Part shown: piece by piece, positions 43,650-51,248 of the stretch | Numbering within the stretch: the stretch's first letter is position 1 | How the letters are laid out: every line of letters begins with the position of its first letter | Assembly (NCBI GenBank): GCA_035278885.1 | Contig: DATEIR010000068.1 | Span: 4,095 to 68,094 of the forward strand | Source: Gemmatimonadales bacterium | Lineage (GTDB): Bacteria > Gemmatimonadota > Gemmatimonadetes > Gemmatimonadales > GWC2-71-9 | Length of the DNA: 64,000 nt | Direction: 5' to 3' | Notes under the pieces: generated by a model | The model's input: the letters and a program-made list of their open reading frames with translations, nothing else | What the model was told of the DNA's origin: nothing | Database searches by the model: none | Made by a program: the position numbers and the translations under genes

Positions 43650-44009
43650 TCAGGGCGGGTCGGACATTCCTCTGAGCAGACCCCAGGTCAGTCGGCCTAC
43701 CTGGGTTCTTAGCCCATGCAGCTTTGCCCACTCCTGCTCCTCCAAGAGGCCGCGATCGCGAGCGAACCGTAGCAGATGGGACAGCTCCGCCAAGGACCCC
43801 CGGGCAATATTGAGGAACCGCCGCAGCTCGCGCGGGCCCAGGCGTGCCGCACCTTCCGCGATGTTGGCAGGGACCGACAAGGCGGCGCGACGCACTTGGG
43901 TCGTCAGCTCGAACCGCTCCGTCCTCGGCCATCTGTCGGTGGCATCATACACCTGCAGCGCCAAGCGATGCGCGGCTTGCCATGCGTCAAGCTTCTCGTG
44001 AGGGTCCAT
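43650..44009 (-). CDS. Four-helix-bundle protein (23S rRNA intervening-sequence protein family, PF05635/TIGR02436-like)
   Basis: LDAWQAAHRLALQVY...ERFELTTQVRRAALSVPANIAEGAAR...FLNIARGSLAELSHLL match the family consensus (W/FQKA...LxxQLRRAAxSIxxNIAEG...FLxIAxGSxxEL). Confidence 0.9.
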   Translation of the reverse strand: MDPHEKLDAWQAAHRLALQVYDATDRWPRTERFELTTQVRRAALSVPANIAEGAARLGPRELRRFLNIARGSLAELSHLLRFARDRGLLEEQEWAKLHGLRTQVGRLTWGLLRGMSDPP

Positions 44010-44025: not shown

Positions 44026-44058
44026 CCCGCCCCTGCGCCCCTGCGCCCCTGCGCCCCT
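44026..44058. repeat. Right arm of the gene-flanking inverted simple repeat (CCCCTGCG)n
   Basis: CCCGCCCCTGCGCCCCTGCGCCCCTGCGCCCCT overlaps the stop codon (44057..44059) of the histidine-kinase gene. Confidence 0.8.
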
Positions 44059-45460
44059 ATCCCACCGCCGGCAACGCCACCCGAAACTCCGTCCGTCCCG
44101 GCTCCGACTCCACGTCGATCGTTCCCTCGTTCTTGTCCACCAGCCGGCGGACGATGTCGAGCCCGAGCCCGGTGCCCTTGCCCACTCCCTTGGTGGTGAA
44201 GAAGGGATCGAAGATCCGGGATTTCACATCGTCAGGGATGCCGGCCCCGTTGTCCCGCACCCGCACCACTACCCGATTCGACTCGACGCGGGCGGAGACC
44301 ACCACCCGGCCGTTCTCGCCCACCGCATCGAGCGCGTTGTCGATCAGGTTGGCCCAGACCTGGTTGAGCTCACCCCCGAACCCGCTCGCCTTGGGCAGGC
44401 CGGCCGGCAGGTCGAGGGTCAACGCCGCAGACTTCTCCCGCGCCTTCGCCCCCATCACGGCCAGCGTGTCCGTGATCCCCTTCGCCACATCCACCGGCTC
44501 GGCCGACGGCGCGTGGTCCATATAGGTGAAGCCCTTCACCGCGCTCACCAGCTCGTGCACCCGCGAGGCGGCACGCTCGACGTCCTGGGTCAGCGACCGG
44601 ACCATGCACCCGGAGGCGATCCAGCGGAGGCCCACCCCCAGCCGGTCTCCATCGAGCGCGGTGGCGAGCTCGTCGAGCAGGGCTATGGTGACGTTGGTCT
44701 CGCCCAGCGGGCCCGCGAGCGCGTCGTCCAGCCCGTGGTCCAGCAGCCAGTCGGTGAGCGCCTCCTCACGGTCGGAGCGCTCGAGCGGCGAGAACACGCC
44801 CGTGGTGGGCCCGCCGGTGCAGATGAAACGCACCCGCTCGACCGCCAGGAGCGCGCGGTCGTCGAGATCCGCCGCGCCCAGCTCGCGGGACGCCTCCTCG
44901 GACTCCGCCAGTGCCTCGGAGAGAAGCCTGGCGCTCCGGGCGGCCGCCGAGGCCGGGTTGTTCAGCTCGTGCGCCAGGCCGGCGGCGAGCTTGCCCAGCG
45001 AGGCCATCTTCTCCACCTGAAAGTCGCTGGCCTTGAAGGCCTTGGCCCGGTCCACCATCACGTGCACCAGCGACGCCGTCACAGTGGGACAATGGACCGG
45101 CAGCGCGGGCAGGTGCTCGGTGGGCACTCGGAAGATCTCGGCCGGCTCCAGGATCACCGAGTTCCCCGGCGCGGCGGCCATGCGGGAGTAGGGGAGCATG
45201 CCGGTCGCGTCCCCGGCATACCAGTCGATGGCCTTTCGCCAGACGCCGGCCTGATCCAGCATGTGCGCCACGTGGCCGGAGAGGATGATGTACATCGCCT
45301 CGACCGGCTGACCCTTGCGGGCGATCAGGTCGCCATCCTGATAGTGCTCCAGCGTCCCATGGTCCATCAGCCACTCCAGCTCGGCGCGAGGCGCGTTCCC
45401 CAGCGCCTTGTGCGCGCCGAGCCGGGCGAGGAGGGAGCCGTCGGATCCGGAGTCGCTCAT
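44057..45460 (-). CDS. Cytoplasmic sensor histidine kinase with N-terminal cyclic-nucleotide-binding domain
   Basis: cNMP-binding-like beta-roll (YQDGDLIARKGQPVEAMYIILSGHV), H-box AAGLAHELNNPASA and HATPase_c motifs (DNGAGIP, GTGLGLDIV). No TM segments. Confidence 0.85.
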   Translation of the reverse strand: MSDSGSDGSLLARLGAHKALGNAPRAELEWLMDHGTLEHYQDGDLIARKGQPVEAMYIILSGHVAHMLDQAGVWRKAIDWYAGDATGMLPYSRMAAAPGNSVILEPAEIFRVPTEHLPALPVHCPTVTASLVHVMVDRAKAFKASDFQVEKMASLGKLAAGLAHELNNPASAAARSARLLSEALAESEEASRELGAADLDDRALLAVERVRFICTGGPTTGVFSPLERSDREEALTDWLLDHGLDDALAGPLGETNVTIALLDELATALDGDRLGVGLRWIASGCMVRSLTQDVERAASRVHELVSAVKGFTYMDHAPSAEPVDVAKGITDTLAVMGAKAREKSAALTLDLPAGLPKASGFGGELNQVWANLIDNALDAVGENGRVVVSARVESNRVVVRVRDNGAGIPDDVKSRIFDPFFTTKGVGKGTGLGLDIVRRLVDKNEGTIDVESEPGRTEFRVALPAVG

Positions 45461-45464
45461 GGGC

Positions 45465-47210
45465 CTAGACCGTCTGCAGGTATTGGTGGACCATGCTCAC
45501 CGTCGCCGAACCCTCGCCGACGGCGGCGGCGACGCGCTTGCCCGAGCCGAGACGCGCGTCCCCGGCGCAGAAGATCCCCGGCACGCTGGTCTCGAACAGG
45601 TACGGGTCGCGTGGGGCGGTCCAGCCCGGGGGGCGCTGGCCGTCGGTCATCAGGTCTCGGCCGGTGACCACGAAGCCATGGGTGTCGCGCTGCACCAGGT
45701 CGGCGCAGAACGCCGTGCGCGGCGCGGCCCCGATGAAGATGAACATGGCGGCCGCGGGGAGCTCCCGGCGCTCGCCGCTCCCGGCGTCGGTCACCACGAC
45801 GCTCTCGAGCCGTCCCTCACCCCGGGCCGAGGCCACGCTGGTGTTCACCAGGACCTCGATGTTGGGTGTTTCCCGGATCCGGTCCACCAGGTAGCTCGAC
45901 ATGGCCGTGGCCAGGTCGGCCCCGCGGACCAGGATGGTGACCTTCCTCGCCTGCCGGGAAAAGAAGAGCGCGCCCTGGCCGCATGAGTTGGCGCCGCCGA
46001 CCACGATCACGTCGCGACCCCGATACATCGCCGCCTCGGTGAGCGACGAGCCGTAGTAGACCCCGGTGCCGATCAGCGGCTCGATCCCCTCGGCCTGGAG
46101 CCGCCGCACTTCCATGCCCGGCGTGATCAGCACGGCGTATCCCGTCACCTCCGAGCCGTCGCTCAGGAGCACCTTGCGGTAGGGGTCCTCGCGCCGGACC
46201 TCGACCACCTCCGCCGTGGTGATGATCTCGGCGCCGAAGCGACGGGCCTGGGCTGCGGCACGGGTGGTGAGGTCGCCGCCGGACAGGCCGCCCGGGAACC
46301 CGAGGTAGTTCTCGATTTTCGAGCTGGTTCCCGCCTGGCCTCCGCAGGCGAAGCGCTCGACCAGGATGGTGCGCAGCCCCTCCGACGCGCCGTACACGGC
46401 GCCGGCCAGCCCCGCCGGCCCGCCCCCGACCACGATCAGGTCGTAGAATGGTTTTCGGGCCCGGGTCTGCAGCCCGATCTTCTCGGCCAGGTCGCGGATG
46501 GCCGGCTGTTCCATCCGGGTGCCGTCGGGGAAGAGGACCACGGGCAGGTGGGAGGCGCCGCCGTTCATCCCGGCGAGCAGCTCACGCACCGACGAATCCT
46601 CGTCCGCGTCGAGCCACTGGTAAGGCACCTGGTTGGAGGCGAGGAACTCCTTCACCGCGTAGCTCGCCGGCGACAGCGTGGTGCCGGCGATCCGGATTCC
46701 ATCGAAGGCCGGCCGGGCCTTGGCCCACCACTCCGAGAGCAGATCCTCCAGCACCGGATAGAGCTTCTGGGTGGGCGGCTCCCAGGGCTTGAGCAGGTAG
46801 TGGTCGAGGCCGACCTGGTTGATCGCGGTGATCGCCGTGTCGGTGTCGGCGTAGGCCGTGAGCAGCACCCGGCGTGCGTCGGGGTAGAGCTTGATCGCCT
46901 CGAGGAGGAACTGGGTGCCGCTCATCCCGGGCATGCGCTCGTCCACCAGGAAGAGCGCCACCTGGGCGCCTCGCTGCAGCAGCTCGCGGACCGTCTCGAG
47001 GGCCTGGGCGCCGGAGGACGCCTTCACGATGCGGTAGTCCGAGCGGAAATGCTGTCGGAGATCGCGCTCGATCGCCTTCAGGACTTCGCGATCGTCATCG
47101 ACGGTGAGGAGAACGGGCTTCAGGGGGACAGCCGTGCGTTGGAGATGATGAAGGTTAACGCTCCTTCGAGCGTCCGCCAGCCGGCGCGATATCTTTCCGC
47201 ACACGTCCAT
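45465..47210 (-). CDS. Response-regulator receiver fused to a thioredoxin-fold linker and a thioredoxin-reductase-like flavoprotein (no CxxC)
   Basis: This is the 3' part of ORF 45465..48788. REC motifs are LLTVDDD, LFLVDERMPGMSG and YLLKPW. The FAD/NAD folds read DLIVVGGGPAGLAGA and VIVVGGANSCGQGALFF. The TrxB CATC position reads GSSL. The start is uncertain (ATG at 47210 or 47231). Confidence 0.85.
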   Translation of the reverse strand: MDVCGKISRRLADARRSVNLHHLQRTAVPLKPVLLTVDDDREVLKAIERDLRQHFRSDYRIVKASSGAQALETVRELLQRGAQVALFLVDERMPGMSGTQFLLEAIKLYPDARRVLLTAYADTDTAITAINQVGLDHYLLKPWEPPTQKLYPVLEDLLSEWWAKARPAFDGIRIAGTTLSPASYAVKEFLASNQVPYQWLDADEDSSVRELLAGMNGGASHLPVVLFPDGTRMEQPAIRDLAEKIGLQTRARKPFYDLIVVGGGPAGLAGAVYGASEGLRTILVERFACGGQAGTSSKIENYLGFPGGLSGGDLTTRAAAQARRFGAEIITTAEVVEVRREDPYRKVLLSDGSEVTGYAVLITPGMEVRRLQAEGIEPLIGTGVYYGSSLTEAAMYRGRDVIVVGGANSCGQGALFFSRQARKVTILVRGADLATAMSSYLVDRIRETPNIEVLVNTSVASARGEGRLESVVVTDAGSGERRELPAAAMFIFIGAAPRTAFCADLVQRDTHGFVVTGRDLMTDGQRPPGWTAPRDPYLFETSVPGIFCAGDARLGSGKRVAAAVGEGSATVSMVHQYLQTV

Positions 47211-47225
47211 CCAATGGAGGCCCCG

Positions 47226-48845
47226 ATGCATCGGCGCACCGCGCTGGGGCTGCTGCTCATCGCGGGAGGCGTGGCGCCCTCCCTGTCCGCTCAAGAGCAT
47301 GCTCACGGCCACGGCGAGCGCCTGGGCCGGGTCGTCTTTCCGGTATCCTGCAGGGCCGAGGCGCAGCATCGCTTCGAGCGGGCCATGGCGGCGCTCCACT
47401 CCTTCTGGTGGGAGGAAGGGCCGCGCGCCTTCGGCGCGGTGCTGGAGGCCGACTCCACCTGCGCGATGGCCCACTGGGGCCTGGCGCTCAACGCCTGGGG
47501 CAACCCATTCGCCGGCGGCCCCTCCAAGGACCTGGTTCGGACCGGCGCCGGGGAGGCCGCTCAGGCGGCCGCCCTGGGGGCGCCGACCGCGCGGGAGCGG
47601 GGGTTCATCGCGGCGGCGTCCGCGCTCTATCGGGACTACGAGACGGTGCCCGCGCCGGTCCGACTCCAGGCGTACTCCGATACGCTCGCCCGGCTCTACC
47701 GCGACGAGCCCCGTGAGCCGGAGGTGGCGCTCTATTACGCCCTCAGCCTCATCGCTACGGCCCCCAAGACCGACACGACCTACGTGAAGCAGAAGCGGGC
47801 GGCGGCCATTCTCGACCCGCTCTTCGCCCGCTACCCGGACCATCCGGGGCTGGCTCACTACATCATCCACGCCGACGACTCGCCCGCGCTGGCCCACCTC
47901 GGCCTGAACGCGGCCCGGCGCTACGCGGCCATCGCGCCGGACGCGCCGCACGCGCAGCACATGCCGTCGCACATCTTCGTACGCCTCGGGCTCTGGGACG
48001 AGACGGTCGCGTCCAACCGGCGCTCGTACGAGGCGGGCGCGCGCTTCGCCAGGGCGCAAGGGATCGCCGGCGCCGTCTACGAGAACTATCACGCCATGGA
48101 TTACATGGTCTACGGCTACCTGCAGGAGGGCCGCGATTCGGCCGCGCGGGCGGTGGTGGCGCAGGGGCTCGCCGTGAGCGAGGTGCGCGGGCCATCGCCC
48201 CTGGTCCGGGGATACAATCGAACCGCCATGGAGGCCAGGGTGCCGCTCGAGCGGGGCGACTGGCTGGCCGCCTCCGCGCTCCCGGTACGGATGCCGGACA
48301 TTCCCGTCTGCCAGATGCTGATCCACTTCGCTCGCGGGATCGGGGCGGCGCGCTCGTCGAGAGCCGGGCAGCTCCAGGACGAAGTGGCCGAGCTGGCGAA
48401 GGTCGAGAAACTGCTCGACACGCCGAGCGATGCCTATTGGAGCCGGGTCGCCGGCATCAAGCGGCAGGCGCTCGGCGCCTGGACGCTCCTGGCCGCGGGG
48501 GACACCGCCGGCGCGCTGGCGGCGGCAAAGGCGGCGGCGGATTCGGAGGCGGTCACCGAGAAGCATCCGATCACGCCGGGGGAGCTGATTCCGGCGCGGG
48601 AGCTGGAGGCCGACCTGAACTTCCAGGTGGCCCGTTACCGAGAGGCTCGGACCGCCTACCTGGCCACACTCAAACGGGAGCCGGGCCGGGCCCGCTCGGT
48701 GTTCGGTGCCGCACGCGCCGCGGAAATGGCGGGCGACAAGGCCGCGGCGGCGAAGGGCTACCGGCAGTACCTGGAGCTCATGCGGCACGCCGACGGCGAC
48801 CGGCCGGAGCTTCGGATCGCGCGGGCGGGCGCGAAGGCCGGCTAG
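47226..48845 (+). CDS. Secreted TPR-like hypothetical protein
   Basis: GGAGG lies 5 nt before the ATG at 47226. Signal peptide MHRRTALGLLLIAGGVAPSLSAQ, then a helical-repeat protein. The family could not be named. Confidence 0.6.
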   Translation: MHRRTALGLLLIAGGVAPSLSAQEHAHGHGERLGRVVFPVSCRAEAQHRFERAMAALHSFWWEEGPRAFGAVLEADSTCAMAHWGLALNAWGNPFAGGPSKDLVRTGAGEAAQAAALGAPTARERGFIAAASALYRDYETVPAPVRLQAYSDTLARLYRDEPREPEVALYYALSLIATAPKTDTTYVKQKRAAAILDPLFARYPDHPGLAHYIIHADDSPALAHLGLNAARRYAAIAPDAPHAQHMPSHIFVRLGLWDETVASNRRSYEAGARFARAQGIAGAVYENYHAMDYMVYGYLQEGRDSAARAVVAQGLAVSEVRGPSPLVRGYNRTAMEARVPLERGDWLAASALPVRMPDIPVCQMLIHFARGIGAARSSRAGQLQDEVAELAKVEKLLDTPSDAYWSRVAGIKRQALGAWTLLAAGDTAGALAAAKAAADSEAVTEKHPITPGELIPARELEADLNFQVARYREARTAYLATLKREPGRARSVFGAARAAEMAGDKAAAAKGYRQYLELMRHADGDRPELRIARAGAKAG

Positions 48846-48957
48846 ACGGACCGGCTGCGCGGCGCTGGTGACTCACGTCACCGCAGCGTCTCCGGGAGCG
48901 GGCATTCTAGAGGAAAGCGTCGTCCTGAATCTTCCTCGGCCACCCGCGCCCGCCACG

Positions 48958-50682
48958 ATGCGTAGCAGACCCACGGTCCCGCTCCTCGCTCTCCTTTCCG
49001 CACTGTTCGCCTGCACGACCGGCGCCGGGGAACACCCAGCGCGGCACGACCGCACGGCGTCCGCCAAGGCCGGGCAGGCGGAGCGCGCGCTCCGGACGGC
49101 GATGGCCGACAGCGCCGCCTGGCCGTCATACGGCCGAGACCAGAGCAATCAGCGCTACTCGCCGCTGAGCCAGATCGGCACCGGCAACGTCGCCCGGCTG
49201 CGTCTGGCCTGGACGTACCACACCGGCATCCCGCACGCCTTCGAGGCCAGCCCGGTGGTGGTGGGCGGCACCATGTTCGTGTCCACCCCGCTGAATCACG
49301 TCGTCGCGCTGGATGCGGCCACCGGCAAGAAGCTCTGGGAGTACGCGGAGACCCTGTCGACCACCGTCCACTGCTGCGGACCGGTCAACCGCGGCGTCGC
49401 CGTTTACGGTGGCCGGGTGTACGAGGGGACCCTCGACGGCCGCCTGGTGGCGCTCGATGCCCGGACCGGGCGACGCGATTGGGTGGTGCGGGTGGCCGAC
49501 AACGAGCGGGGCTACGCCGTGGACGGCGCGCCGGTGGCCGCGGACGGCAAGATCATCGTCGGCGTCAGCGGCGCCGAGTACGGCATCCGCGGCTTCGTCA
49601 CGGCGTACGACGCGGAGACCGGCGCGAGGATCTGGCGGTTCTATACCATCCCGAGTCCCCAGGAAGGCGGCTGGTGGGGCAAGTGGGCCGCGGCCGATCC
49701 CTTCGGCACCCCGCTCAACCGCGACCTCGCGCGCGAGCACGCCGACAGCGCCCAGCACGCCGACACCTGGAAGGTCGGCGGAGGGTCGGTCTGGCAGGCG
49801 CCGGCGGTGGACCGCGACCTGGGCCTGGTGATCTTCGGCGTGGGCAACCCCTCACCCGACCTCGACGGCTCGGTCCGGCCGGGCGACAACCTGTATACCG
49901 CGTCGGTGGTGGCGGTCGATCTCGGCACCGGTCAGCTCAAGTGGTATTTCCAGGAGCTGCCGCACGACACCTGGGACCTGGACGCGGTGAGTCCGGTGGT
50001 GCTCTTCGATCTGCCGTCGGCGGGCGGTGGGGCGCCGGTCCACGCGGTCGCTCAGGCCGGGAAGACCGGCTGGGTCTATATCCTCGACCGCAAGACCGGA
50101 CGGCCGATCCGCCGGTCCGATCCGTTCGTCCCCCAGGCCAACCTGTTCGCTCGTCCGACGCCCGGCGGGGTTCGCATGCTGCCCGGGGCCAACGGAGGCT
50201 CCGAGTGGTCGGCCCCCGCGTACAGCCCCGCGACCGGATACCTGTACGTGCTCGGCCTGCACCAGCCGATGCTCTACAAGGTGAAGCCCGAGCCGCTCCT
50301 CCCGCCGGCCTTCTGGCTGGGCGGCGCCTTCTACAGCAACGGCGAGCCGGAGTACGGACTGTTCAGCGCGGTGGATCTGGCCACCGGCAAGATCGCGTGG
50401 CAGAACAAGGTGAAGGACCCGATGATCGGCGGGGCGCTCGCGACCGGCGGCGGTCTCGTCTTCACCGGGACCAAGGACAAGCAGTTCCTCGCGTTCGACG
50501 CCCGGAGCGGAAAGCAGCTCTGGCGCTATGACGCCAGCGCGGGCGTCAACGCGCCGCCGGTGAGCTACGCCGTGCAGGGCCGGCAGTACGTGGCGGTCGC
50601 GGCGGGCGGTAACTATCAGATCAACGCGCCGCGGGGCGACGAGGTCCTCGCCTTCGCGCTCGACGCCGGGGGCGCGCCGTGA
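48958..50682 (+). CDS. PQQ-dependent alcohol/sugar dehydrogenase (methanol/ethanol quinoprotein family)
   Basis: ATG at 48958, in-frame within ORF 48706..50682. Lipobox LSALFAC; WPSYGRDQSNQRYSPL; vicinal Cys pair HCCGPVNRG; repeated W-motif propeller blades. Confidence 0.9.
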   Translation: MRSRPTVPLLALLSALFACTTGAGEHPARHDRTASAKAGQAERALRTAMADSAAWPSYGRDQSNQRYSPLSQIGTGNVARLRLAWTYHTGIPHAFEASPVVVGGTMFVSTPLNHVVALDAATGKKLWEYAETLSTTVHCCGPVNRGVAVYGGRVYEGTLDGRLVALDARTGRRDWVVRVADNERGYAVDGAPVAADGKIIVGVSGAEYGIRGFVTAYDAETGARIWRFYTIPSPQEGGWWGKWAAADPFGTPLNRDLAREHADSAQHADTWKVGGGSVWQAPAVDRDLGLVIFGVGNPSPDLDGSVRPGDNLYTASVVAVDLGTGQLKWYFQELPHDTWDLDAVSPVVLFDLPSAGGGAPVHAVAQAGKTGWVYILDRKTGRPIRRSDPFVPQANLFARPTPGGVRMLPGANGGSEWSAPAYSPATGYLYVLGLHQPMLYKVKPEPLLPPAFWLGGAFYSNGEPEYGLFSAVDLATGKIAWQNKVKDPMIGGALATGGGLVFTGTKDKQFLAFDARSGKQLWRYDASAGVNAPPVSYAVQGRQYVAVAAGGNYQINAPRGDEVLAFALDAGGAP

Positions 50683-51248
50683 ACGCCGCGGCCTCACTCG
50701 TGGCGGTCGCGGTCCTTGTCCTGGCACCGGCGGCGGTCGCGGCCCAGGTCGCGGGCCGAGGCTCCTCGCCGTCTCCCGGCGCCTCCGCGGATACCGCCGG
50801 ACAAGGGATCTCGACCAACGAGGAAGGCCAGCCGCCCAAACTTCCCCCGCTGCCGCAGGGAATGACGGTGGATCTGATCGTCACCGGGGACAGCCTGTTT
50901 CATACGAAGGGCCATTGCTTCGCCTGCCACGGGGCGGACGCCGCCGGCCTGCCGGACGCCGGCTCGGCGCTCACGCGGGGTCTCAACTTCGTGCCGCTCG
51001 AGTGGGGGCCCATCGACTCCCTGATCATCAGCGGCATTCCCGACGCGATCACGCGCTCGGCCATCCAGATGCCGCCCAAGGGGGGCAAGTCCGACCTGAC
51101 CGCGGAAGAGACCCGGGCCATCGCCGCCTACGTCTGGGCGATCAGTCAGACCCGCGGTGAGCCATGGTCCGGCGGCCATGCCACGCACGCGTCCATGATC
51201 GCGCCGGGCGTGACCGCGGGGACGGCCGCGGCCCCGATGGGAAGGTAA
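50679..51248 (+). CDS. c-type cytochrome
   Basis: Signal peptide and heme-binding motif CFACH. The start overlaps the stop of the PQQ dehydrogenase gene. Confidence 0.8.
   Translation: MNAAASLVAVAVLVLAPAAVAAQVAGRGSSPSPGASADTAGQGISTNEEGQPPKLPPLPQGMTVDLIVTGDSLFHTKGHCFACHGADAAGLPDAGSALTRGLNFVPLEWGPIDSLIISGIPDAITRSAIQMPPKGGKSDLTAEETRAIAAYVWAISQTRGEPWSGGHATHASMIAPGVTAGTAAAPMGR

Follow-up and report, generated by a model that had tools for sequence, protein, structure and literature searches.

A conserved regulator-kinase gene pair

The window, the whole 64,000-nucleotide stretch of Gemmatimonadales DNA analyzed here, carries two minus-strand open reading frames at 45465..47231 and 44057..45460, confirming the predicted gene pair with its 4-nt spacing; all features described below lie on the same strand. 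The first frame, identified by ORF calling and by Pfam and TIGR profile matches, encodes a response regulator composed of a receiver (REC), a glutaredoxin-like (Grx-like) domain, and a thioredoxin reductase-like (TrxR-like) domain. The second, which starts 4 nt after the regulator stop codon, encodes a soluble histidine kinase of 467 aa. A scan of this operon for promoters and terminators returned nothing above shuffled background. The regulator has 588 codons when read from the ATG at 47231 and 581 when read from the ATG at 47210. Its close homologues begin with MAVPLKPV, and the same ATG position reads ACG in the window (47133-47135). This ACG is the ancestral start position of the regulator; the start is therefore at 47210 or 47231, or non-canonical, and its placement at 47231 is uncertain.

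We compared the pair across 81 loci, which represent at least nine phyla (Gemmatimonadota, Acidobacteriota, Chloroflexota, Bacteroidota, Actinomycetota, Cyanobacteriota, Planctomycetota, Verrucomicrobiota, and Deinococcota). In 77 of them the regulator has a kinase core as its same-strand neighbor, and a cNMP_binding match is present in 36 of 38 partner kinases. Cultured carriers of the regulator include Deinococcus aetherius, Tunturiibacter empetritectus, Nostoc edaphicum, and Mycolicibacterium. All-against-all ORF clustering of the 81 loci yielded no third conserved gene, with only the regulator and the kinase common across phyla. A LuxR/GerE neighbor gene is confined to Acidobacteriaceae (26 loci), and the neighbors in the window (a 23S-rRNA-IVS protein, a PQQ dehydrogenase, a cytochrome c, and a secreted protein) are absent even from the closest loci. 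The regulator and kinase thus form a conserved two-gene module. The domain anatomy and this adjacency uphold the proposal that the two proteins are a two-component pair whose output is a flavoprotein and not a DNA-binding domain.

The receiver occupies regulator residues 42 to 152 (46776..47108) and matches Pfam Response_reg at 53.2 bits, against a cut-off of 30.2. Every receiver motif that had been predicted is present: DDD at residues 45 to 47, the phospho-Asp context LFLVDERMPGMSG at 93 to 105, and YLLKPW at 145 to 150. D45 to D47 make up the acidic pocket and D97 is the phospho-acceptor, with T125 and K148 also in place; these residues are kept in all 80 orthologues compared.

Loss of the redox cysteines from both output domains

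The receiver is followed by a Grx-like domain with a thioredoxin fold (residues about 179 to 252; 46476..46697), recognized by a weak Pfam Glutaredoxin match at residues 188 to 233 (E value of 6e-4), by TIGR02200 (E value of 7e-8), and by the AF2 model, in which its topology is beta-alpha-beta-alpha-beta-beta-alpha. The sequence SPAS (46662-46673) stands in place of CxxC, and its serines S187 and S190 align to the WCPDC of the nearest redox-active relatives (P0193 and P0256), in agreement with the prediction of a thioredoxin-fold linker without CxxC.

The remainder of the protein is a TrxR-like, two-Rossmann flavoprotein (residues 263 to 588; 45468..46445), as established by profile matches, alignments, and structure superposition. 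The Pfam Pyr_redox_2 match spans residues 263 to 574, and the TIGR01292 TrxB profile scores 215.7 bits, under its curated cut-off of 343.45. At the CxxC-equivalent position the domain reads GVYYGSSLTEA (46032-46064), of which GSSLTE aligns to the CA(A/V)C-D of solved TrxRs and of the TrxB encoded in this genome. The loss of the TrxB redox disulfide, as originally proposed, extends to the whole cysteine-free clade described below. A search for a CxxC elsewhere in the regulator found none, and its four cysteines are not conserved.

The FAD motifs GxGxxG (GGGPAG; 46410-46427) and GD (AGDAR; 45552-45572) are both kept. The glycine motif of the NAD(P)H domain is weakened, reading GGANSC (45981-45998) versus the family consensus GGGNSA(GQ), and LVRG...A (LVRG at 45903-45932) replaces the HRR...R of TrxB, so that one of the three 2'-phosphate arginines is left and two are gone. 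Judged by these motifs, the regulator has probably retained the ability to bind FAD and NAD(P)H, with NAD(P)H binding by the window protein made less certain by the weakened GGANSC and the two lost arginines. The AF2 model of the regulator (pLDDT of 91) superposes on the FR conformation of Lactococcus lactis TrxR (5mh4) with a TM score of 0.93 and an rmsd of 2.5 Å in Foldseek; the FO conformation of that TrxR gives no such fit (5mjk; rmsd of 7.3 Å). As modeled, the regulator adopts the flavin-reducing (FR-type) TrxR conformation. Searches for YpdA-type, FMO-type, and Lys/Orn-monooxygenase-type identities gave only weak partial matches, and these were rejected.

A histidine kinase with a non-canonical CAP-type sensor

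The kinase is built from a CAP-like barrel, a DHp domain whose H-box is followed by an inserted helical bundle, and HATPase_c. Its core (44066..45025), defined by Pfam, invariant residues, and the AF2 model, contains the H-box GLAHELNNP with H164 (44954-44980) and the N, G1, F, and G2 boxes of HATPase_c (44159-44350; 89.8 bits in Pfam). H164, N371, D403, G405, G407, F420, G429, G431, and G433 are invariant across 38 kinase orthologues. The sensor is a CAP-type (cNMP-binding-like) beta-barrel at residues about 15 to 145 (45026..45418; Pfam and AF2 model), and its match to PF00027 is borderline, at 26.9 bits in hmmscan against a cut-off of 27.5 and 30.3 bits in a six-frame genome search. No membrane segment was found in the kinase. 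The original prediction of a soluble kinase with a single cNMP-type sensor stands as to solubility and the one CAP-type barrel, but the canonical cassette is missing.

The phosphate-binding cassette (45146-45214) reads TGMLPYSRMAAAPGNS and lacks both the glutamate of the GE motif and the arginine of R[ST]A. These two residues are kept in 13 of the 69 orthologous kinases compared, every one of them from Chloroflexota, and are absent from the other 56. Sequence similarity of the sensor to CAP extends to residue 72 and does not reach the cassette. In the AF2 model the barrel strands span residues 36 to 113 and are followed by a helix from 125 to 196, in which the barrel C-helix is continuous with the DHp helix; no cassette helix is formed, and confidence is lower in that region.

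A family of cysteine-free Grx-TrxR modules

In a tree of Grx-TrxR modules, all 127 cysteine-free members form one clade (support of 100), whose nearest outgroup consists of two Grx-TrxR fusions that still carry WCPDC and CATC. The window protein lies inside the clade, grouped with the REC-fused members, and shares its motifs G[VI][YH][YF]..xxxEA, GGxNSAGQ, VRG, and MSxYL. The regulator output is a cysteine-free descendant of a glutaredoxin-thioredoxin reductase fusion. The first of these motifs, which replaces the CxxC, is conserved, with its Y and E at or near invariance, and conservation across the family also covers GGxNSAGQ and the FAD motifs GxGxxG and GD; no cysteine column of the REC-fused family reaches 20%. 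From this pattern of residues, the cysteine-free module is under selection. The family is a large one, and its members are named "thioredoxin reductase (NADPH)" or "...thioredoxin-disulfide reductase" in databases, an annotation that is probably wrong at scale, because to judge from their sequences they lack the cysteines that define that activity.

The REC-fused form is one of several. In 52 of 150 representative clusters the module is fused directly to a CAP-like domain, and in about 15 to 20 it stands alone. The canonical cassette is missing from 52 of the 53 directly fused CAP-like domains.

Relationship to characterized flavoproteins

The regulator shares the two-Rossmann FAD/NAD(P)H fold of low-molecular-weight TrxB (7jyp, 4zn0, 5mh4, and 1f6m) and of the C-terminal part of AhpF (1hyu and 4o5q), with an E value of 1e-45 by sequence, a TM score of 0.93 by structure, and the GxGxxG, GGQ, and GD motifs in common. 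Like TrxR, it has an acidic residue at the position of Asp139, and like AhpF, it has a thioredoxin-fold domain N-terminal to the reductase. It differs from TrxB and AhpF in having lost CxxC from both the NADPH domain and the thioredoxin-fold domain, in carrying VRG for HRR, and in its added receiver, and it scores far under the cut-offs of the TIGR01292 and AhpF models. TrxR-type ferredoxin-NADP+ reductases (FNRs; Bacillus subtilis YumC, 3lzw; Chlorobaculum tepidum, 3ab1; Thermus thermophilus, 2zbw), with which a comparison had been suggested, also combine the TrxR fold with the absence of CxxC, and the acceptor of their NAD(P)H-derived electrons is not a thiol. They serve as a working mechanistic analogy, and the comparison holds for mechanism only: by sequence the regulator is far closer to TrxR and AhpF (1e-45) than to these FNRs (1e-16 to 1e-11). 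It also lacks the FNR-type C-terminal flavin-stacking extension, its C terminus being the last TrxR helix, and FNRs have neither a Grx-like nor a receiver domain.

The CAP-fused relatives carry the same cysteine-free Grx-like and TrxR-like module and fall in the same clade. In these proteins the CAP-like domain is joined directly to the module, whereas here it sits on a separate kinase, with predicted His-Asp phosphotransfer between the two. They probably include ATII-TrxR, a 552-aa cNMP+TrxB protein. ATII-TrxR was reported to be an FAD-containing dimer that oxidizes NADPH and NADH, to reduce DTNB with a kcat of 5.6 per s and to support thioredoxin-dependent insulin reduction; the redox centers named for it are distant cysteine pairs only, never a CxxC (PMC6544261). 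A protein of the same cNMP+TrxB architecture on the Cupriavidus metallidurans chromid reads GVYYWASPVEA and has no CxxC. Because its cysteines are not at the positions named in that study, this protein may be a paralogue of the best hit given there (PMC6544261).

The REC-TrxB architecture itself, a receiver with a thioredoxin reductase, has already been catalogued (Galperin et al. 2018, PMC5847659; Tang et al. 2023, PMC9953108). These censuses record the architecture only and do not note the cysteine loss, the obligatory CAP-domain kinase partner, or a function. Our full-text literature search returned only these two mentions and the ATII-TrxR paper, and no functional or biochemical study of the REC-fused form. 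The regulator-kinase pair is a real and uncharacterized family.

Candidate mechanism and alternative readings

An NAD(P)H-dependent, non-thiol electron-transfer output, as originally suggested, appears the most economical reading, because the cofactor motifs are kept and the model takes up a flavin-reducing conformation. More specifically, we give about an even chance that the pair is a self-contained two-component module in which a signal gates diaphorase- or FNR-like transfer of NAD(P)H electrons to an acceptor other than a thiol. In the model, the barrel C-helix runs straight into the helix bearing the phospho-histidine H164, so a ligand bound in the barrel could influence autophosphorylation by a mechanical route. 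The kinase would then hand its phosphoryl group to D97 of the regulator. The phosphorylated receiver would probably exert its effect either by way of the dimer interface or by making the NAD(P)H domain rotate and the Grx-like domain dock. The output flavoprotein would probably still bind FAD and NAD(P)H and would be incapable of dithiol-disulfide exchange. No conserved neighbor gene in the 81 loci hints at the electron acceptor.

Other readings of the output were weighed against this one. The flavoprotein could be a cofactor-binding pseudo-enzyme or redox sensor of the NAD(P)H/NAD(P)+ ratio or flavin state, with protein contact or receiver feedback as its output. Thiol chemistry has gone from two domains at once, the Grx-like domain is kept without catalytic residues, as expected of a docking module, and the NAD(P)H motif of the window copy is partly eroded. 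We nevertheless consider this unlikely, given the strong conservation of the active-site-proximal Y, E, GGQ, and GD, the absence of a conserved partner gene nearby, the standalone forms, which are hard to square with a pure sensor lacking an output, and the NAD(P)H turnover of a probable relative (PMC6544261). A further reading, implied by the database names, has the regulator retaining disulfide reductase activity, on thioredoxin or another substrate, by a non-canonical route. This is highly improbable for a REC-fused family with neither a CxxC nor any conserved cysteine, far under the TIGR01292 cut-off, in a genome that already has a genuine TrxB with CAVC. DTNB, moreover, is an unspecific electron acceptor. 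The DTNB and thioredoxin-dependent insulin reduction by ATII-TrxR argues for such a route, and that paper cites distant cysteine pairs rather than a CxxC (PMC6544261); if this activity is correct and the protein is truly free of cysteine motifs, it would conflict with a non-disulfide role.

On the input side, it had been proposed that cAMP or cGMP bound in the CAP-type domain of the kinase gates the phosphorelay. The sensor does have a CAP/CNB fold, and the genome has genes for one class III cyclase and for one strong CRP-like protein. The 13 Chloroflexota orthologues have kept the canonical GE...R[STN]A form of the cassette, and a cyclic nucleotide may therefore have been a ligand of the ancestral kinase. 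For the locus in the window, the claim is not supported: TGMLPYSRMAAAPGNS, like the cassettes of most orthologues (56 of 69), lacks the glutamate and arginine that hold ribose and phosphate, the PF00027 score lies at threshold, CAP similarity stops short of the cassette, and the model forms no cassette helix, at lower confidence there. The directly fused CAP-like domains are likewise non-canonical (52 of 53), and CAP-fold domains are known that bind other ligands, such as heme, 2-oxoglutarate, and halophenols. Cyclic-nucleotide gating is thus distinctly unlikely. With the phosphate-contacting residues absent, cAMP and cGMP are unlikely ligands of the kinase, and from its sequence the pair in this organism is probably not switched by either.

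Returning to signal-gated, non-thiol electron transfer, nearly all characterized response regulators, to our knowledge, control transcription, c-di-GMP turnover, or chemotaxis, and a phosphorylation-gated flavoenzyme would tie sensing directly to redox metabolism. A broader generalization, which we hold at somewhat less than even confidence, is that a large family of cysteine-free, TrxR-derived flavoenzymes from multiple phyla serves as a direct enzymatic output of signaling, with His-Asp phosphotransfer as the gate in some members and, in others, a fused CAP-like sensor that has ceased to read cyclic nucleotides. If so, NAD(P)H-driven electron flow to a new acceptor would be under the post-translational control of a metabolite.

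The genome under study contains the module in REC-fused, CAP-fused, and standalone form, the window protein having two paralogues, together with a true TrxB (CAVC; TIGR01292 score of 359.9 bits). The direct CAP fusions, and the presence of all three formats in addition to TrxB, mark the flavoprotein as a regulated output. Their coexistence in one genome offers a clean system for studying an enzyme under signal control, and it equally suits the question of what is sensed by CAP-fold domains that lack a cyclic-nucleotide cassette.

The regulator-kinase pair and its lost cysteines

The regulator and kinase genes are recovered as minus-strand ORFs at 45465-47231(-) and 44057-45460(-), 4 nt apart as originally predicted, in a window of ~70% G+C whose closest relatives are Gemmatimonadales. 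The regulator consists of a receiver (REC) domain (residues 42 to 152; Pfam Response_reg, 53 bits), a weak glutaredoxin (Grx)-like stretch (residues 188 to 233; NCBIfam mycoredoxin model, E 7e-8), and a thioredoxin reductase (TrxR)-like flavoprotein part (residues 263 to 574; Pyr_redox_2). TIGR01292 scores 215.7 bits on it, against a cut-off of 343.45. All of the sequence motifs cited in the original prediction are present. When we aligned the regulator to solved thioredoxin reductases and to its own genome's TrxB (CAVC), G-S-S-L-T-E stood opposite C-A-x-C-D in both alignments, indicating that both TrxR cysteines are gone and bearing out the predicted loss of the TrxB redox CxxC. The site also contains a one-residue insertion, with Glu at the catalytic Asp position. 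In the Grx-like domain, S187 and S190 lie where the nearest redox-active relatives carry WCPDC, and across the REC-fused family no alignment position reaches 20% Cys. FAD motifs are intact. The glycine motif of the NAD(P)H domain, preserved in most family members, is weakened in the window regulator (GGANSC), which keeps one of the three 2'-phosphate arginines.

The ORF originally assigned to the regulator stands, but its start codon required correction. Close homologues begin with MAVPLKPV, and the corresponding ATG reads ACG in the window (47133-47135); the only canonical in-frame starts are at 47210 and 47231. The ATG at 47210 is 15 nt from a divergent signal-peptide gene starting at 47226, and the ATG at 47231 would overlap that secreted-protein gene by 6 nt, so almost no intergenic room is left for two promoters. 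Besides this secreted protein (539 aa, weakly matching TPR), the divergent cluster (47226-51248(+)) encodes a cytochrome c and a PQQ-dependent dehydrogenase (328 bits). The cluster is possibly a periplasmic electron-transfer unit, and we found no linkage between it and the pair in other genomes. Beyond the kinase's 3' end, after a gap of 47 nt and on the kinase's strand, is a gene for a four-helix "23S rRNA intervening-sequence protein" (43650-44009(-); PF05635, 111 bits), which the other loci do not conserve.

The pair is widespread

Searching one genome per species for relatives of the regulator yielded 590 related stretches. Receiver and flavoprotein were both covered in all of the best 80 of these, which come from Gemmatimonadota, Acidobacteriota, Chloroflexota, Bacteroidota, Actinomycetota (including Mycobacterium), Cyanobacteriota, Planctomycetota, and Verrucomicrobiota; plasmid records added carriers in Deinococcus, Nostoc, Streptomyces, and Burkholderiaceae. 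In 77 of 81 loci the regulator has a kinase core as its neighbour in the same orientation, and 36 of the 38 partner kinases tested have a Pfam cNMP_binding match. Clustering of all flanking ORFs revealed no third gene conserved across phyla. These data indicate that the regulator-kinase family is real and widespread. Within the window's phylum the pair is patchy, occurring in 17 of the 151 genomes searched, 3 of them among 11 further genomes from the window's genus. In 26 loci, mostly from one family of Acidobacteriota (L037-L075, Acidobacteriaceae), the pair has a LuxR/GerE-type regulator gene upstream in divergent orientation (for example, L043:5098-5754(-)).

The REC-TrxR architecture already appears in response-regulator censuses (PMC5847659; PMC9953108), and a form fused to a CAP-like domain is named by PGAP. 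Searches of open-access papers and preprints yielded no functional study of the REC-fused form. The family, which is uncharacterised and of moderate interest, is probably mis-annotated.

The output module probably lost its cysteines once

With the Grx-like and TrxR-like part as sole query, we searched 1.8 billion cluster representatives and sorted the top 150 matches. REC fusions account for 57 to 61 of these, direct CAP-like fusions for 52, and full-length standalone proteins for about 15 to 20. CxxC is absent from all but two (P0193 and P0256), and the cysteine-free modules carry a conserved replacement, G[VI][YH][YF]..xxxEA, together with GGxNSAGQ, VRG (for HRR), and MSxYL. The two exceptions are metagenomic standalone Grx-TrxR fusions (407 and 413 aa) with WCPDC and CATC, and they already have VRG in place of HRR. 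One of their clusters bears the name Anaerolineae. All 127 of the cysteine-free modules group in a single clade (support 100) with a long stem when a FastTree phylogeny is rooted on TrxB from this genome; P0193 and P0256 fall immediately outside and look like the redox-active ancestor type. The CAP-fused forms fall into two main clades, and most REC-fused forms gather in a single large clade, beside unresolved basal groups; because the tree is a quick one, deep branching order within the cysteine-free clade is not resolved. The single origin that these sequences suggest, beside surviving redox-active fusions, is new here.

Also new is the co-occurrence of three module architectures in one genome. 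The window's genome has five related genes: the REC-fused regulator, one standalone copy (contig C93, L082:1171-2424), two CAP-fused copies (C100, L085:829-2481; C169, L084:1441-3402), and the genuine TrxB (C165, L081:1453-2421).

Probable activity of the flavoprotein

In the flavin-reducing (FR) state of TrxR, the nicotinamide site faces the flavin and the disulfide loop is exposed where thioredoxin docks. Our AlphaFold model of the regulator (pLDDT 91, pTM 0.78) superposes on FR-conformation TrxR structures; this FR-state model is new here. Against Lactococcus lactis TrxR it gives a TM of 0.93 and an rmsd of 2.5 A for the FR form (5mh4), versus 0.64 and 7.3 A for the flavin-oxidising (FO) form (5mjk). 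By analogy with TrxR-type FNRs, a protein that lacks the cysteines and is fixed in this predicted geometry would suit the role of an NAD(P)H:acceptor oxidoreductase. The analogy is mechanistic; in sequence, the regulator is much nearer to TrxR/AhpF than to these FNRs.

A published protein bears on this activity, a link to the module family that is new here. ATII-TrxR, a 552-aa cNMP-binding and TrxB protein with 87% identity to a C. metallidurans protein, was reported as a dimer containing FAD, with Km values of 5 uM for NADPH and 4 uM for NADH, a DTNB kcat of 5.6 per s, and insulin reduction via thioredoxin; its authors identify redox centres only in distant Cys pairs and nowhere mention CxxC (PMC6544261). 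A C. metallidurans chromid protein of this architecture reads GVYYWASPVEA, without CxxC, and its Cys positions differ from those published. If ATII-TrxR belongs to the cysteine-free family, its data support the view that the module binds FAD and turns over NAD(P)H, and the claimed thioredoxin reduction would need re-examination.

The kinase input

The kinase is soluble and combines a CAP-type barrel with an H-box (H164), an inserted bundle of helices, and a complete HATPase_c. Its CAP-like domain scores 26.9 and 30.3 bits, around the Pfam threshold of 27.5, and its phosphate-binding cassette, TGMLPYSRMAAAPGNS, lacks both the Glu of the GE pair and the arginine of R[ST]A. Similarity to Escherichia coli CAP covers only residues 27 to 72 and ends ahead of the cassette, and the predicted kinase model has no cassette helix in that region. 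A single class III cyclase and a single strong CRP-like protein are encoded in the genome, so cyclic-nucleotide signalling exists in the organism; the kinase's CAP-like domain does not look like a cyclic-nucleotide receptor, judged by sequence and model. The original reading was right about a flavoprotein output and wrong about, or at best without support for, its cAMP/cGMP input at this locus.

We sorted the cassettes of 69 orthologous kinases into classes, which are new here: 13 are canonical, all from Chloroflexota; 19, including the window's kinase, have G.LP[FY]SR; and 37 keep the Glu and lose the Arg. The cassette is also non-canonical in 52 of 53 directly fused CAP-like domains. In the predicted kinase model, the barrel's C-helix runs unbroken into the DHp helix carrying H164, which suggests a route by which a ligand on the barrel could control the kinase. 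In a Promineifilaceae MAG, the partner kinase (L015:1169-2581) has a receiver domain in place of the CAP-like barrel, and one database protein (P0126, 714 aa) combines REC and the module with a C-terminal CAP-like domain carrying a canonical cassette.
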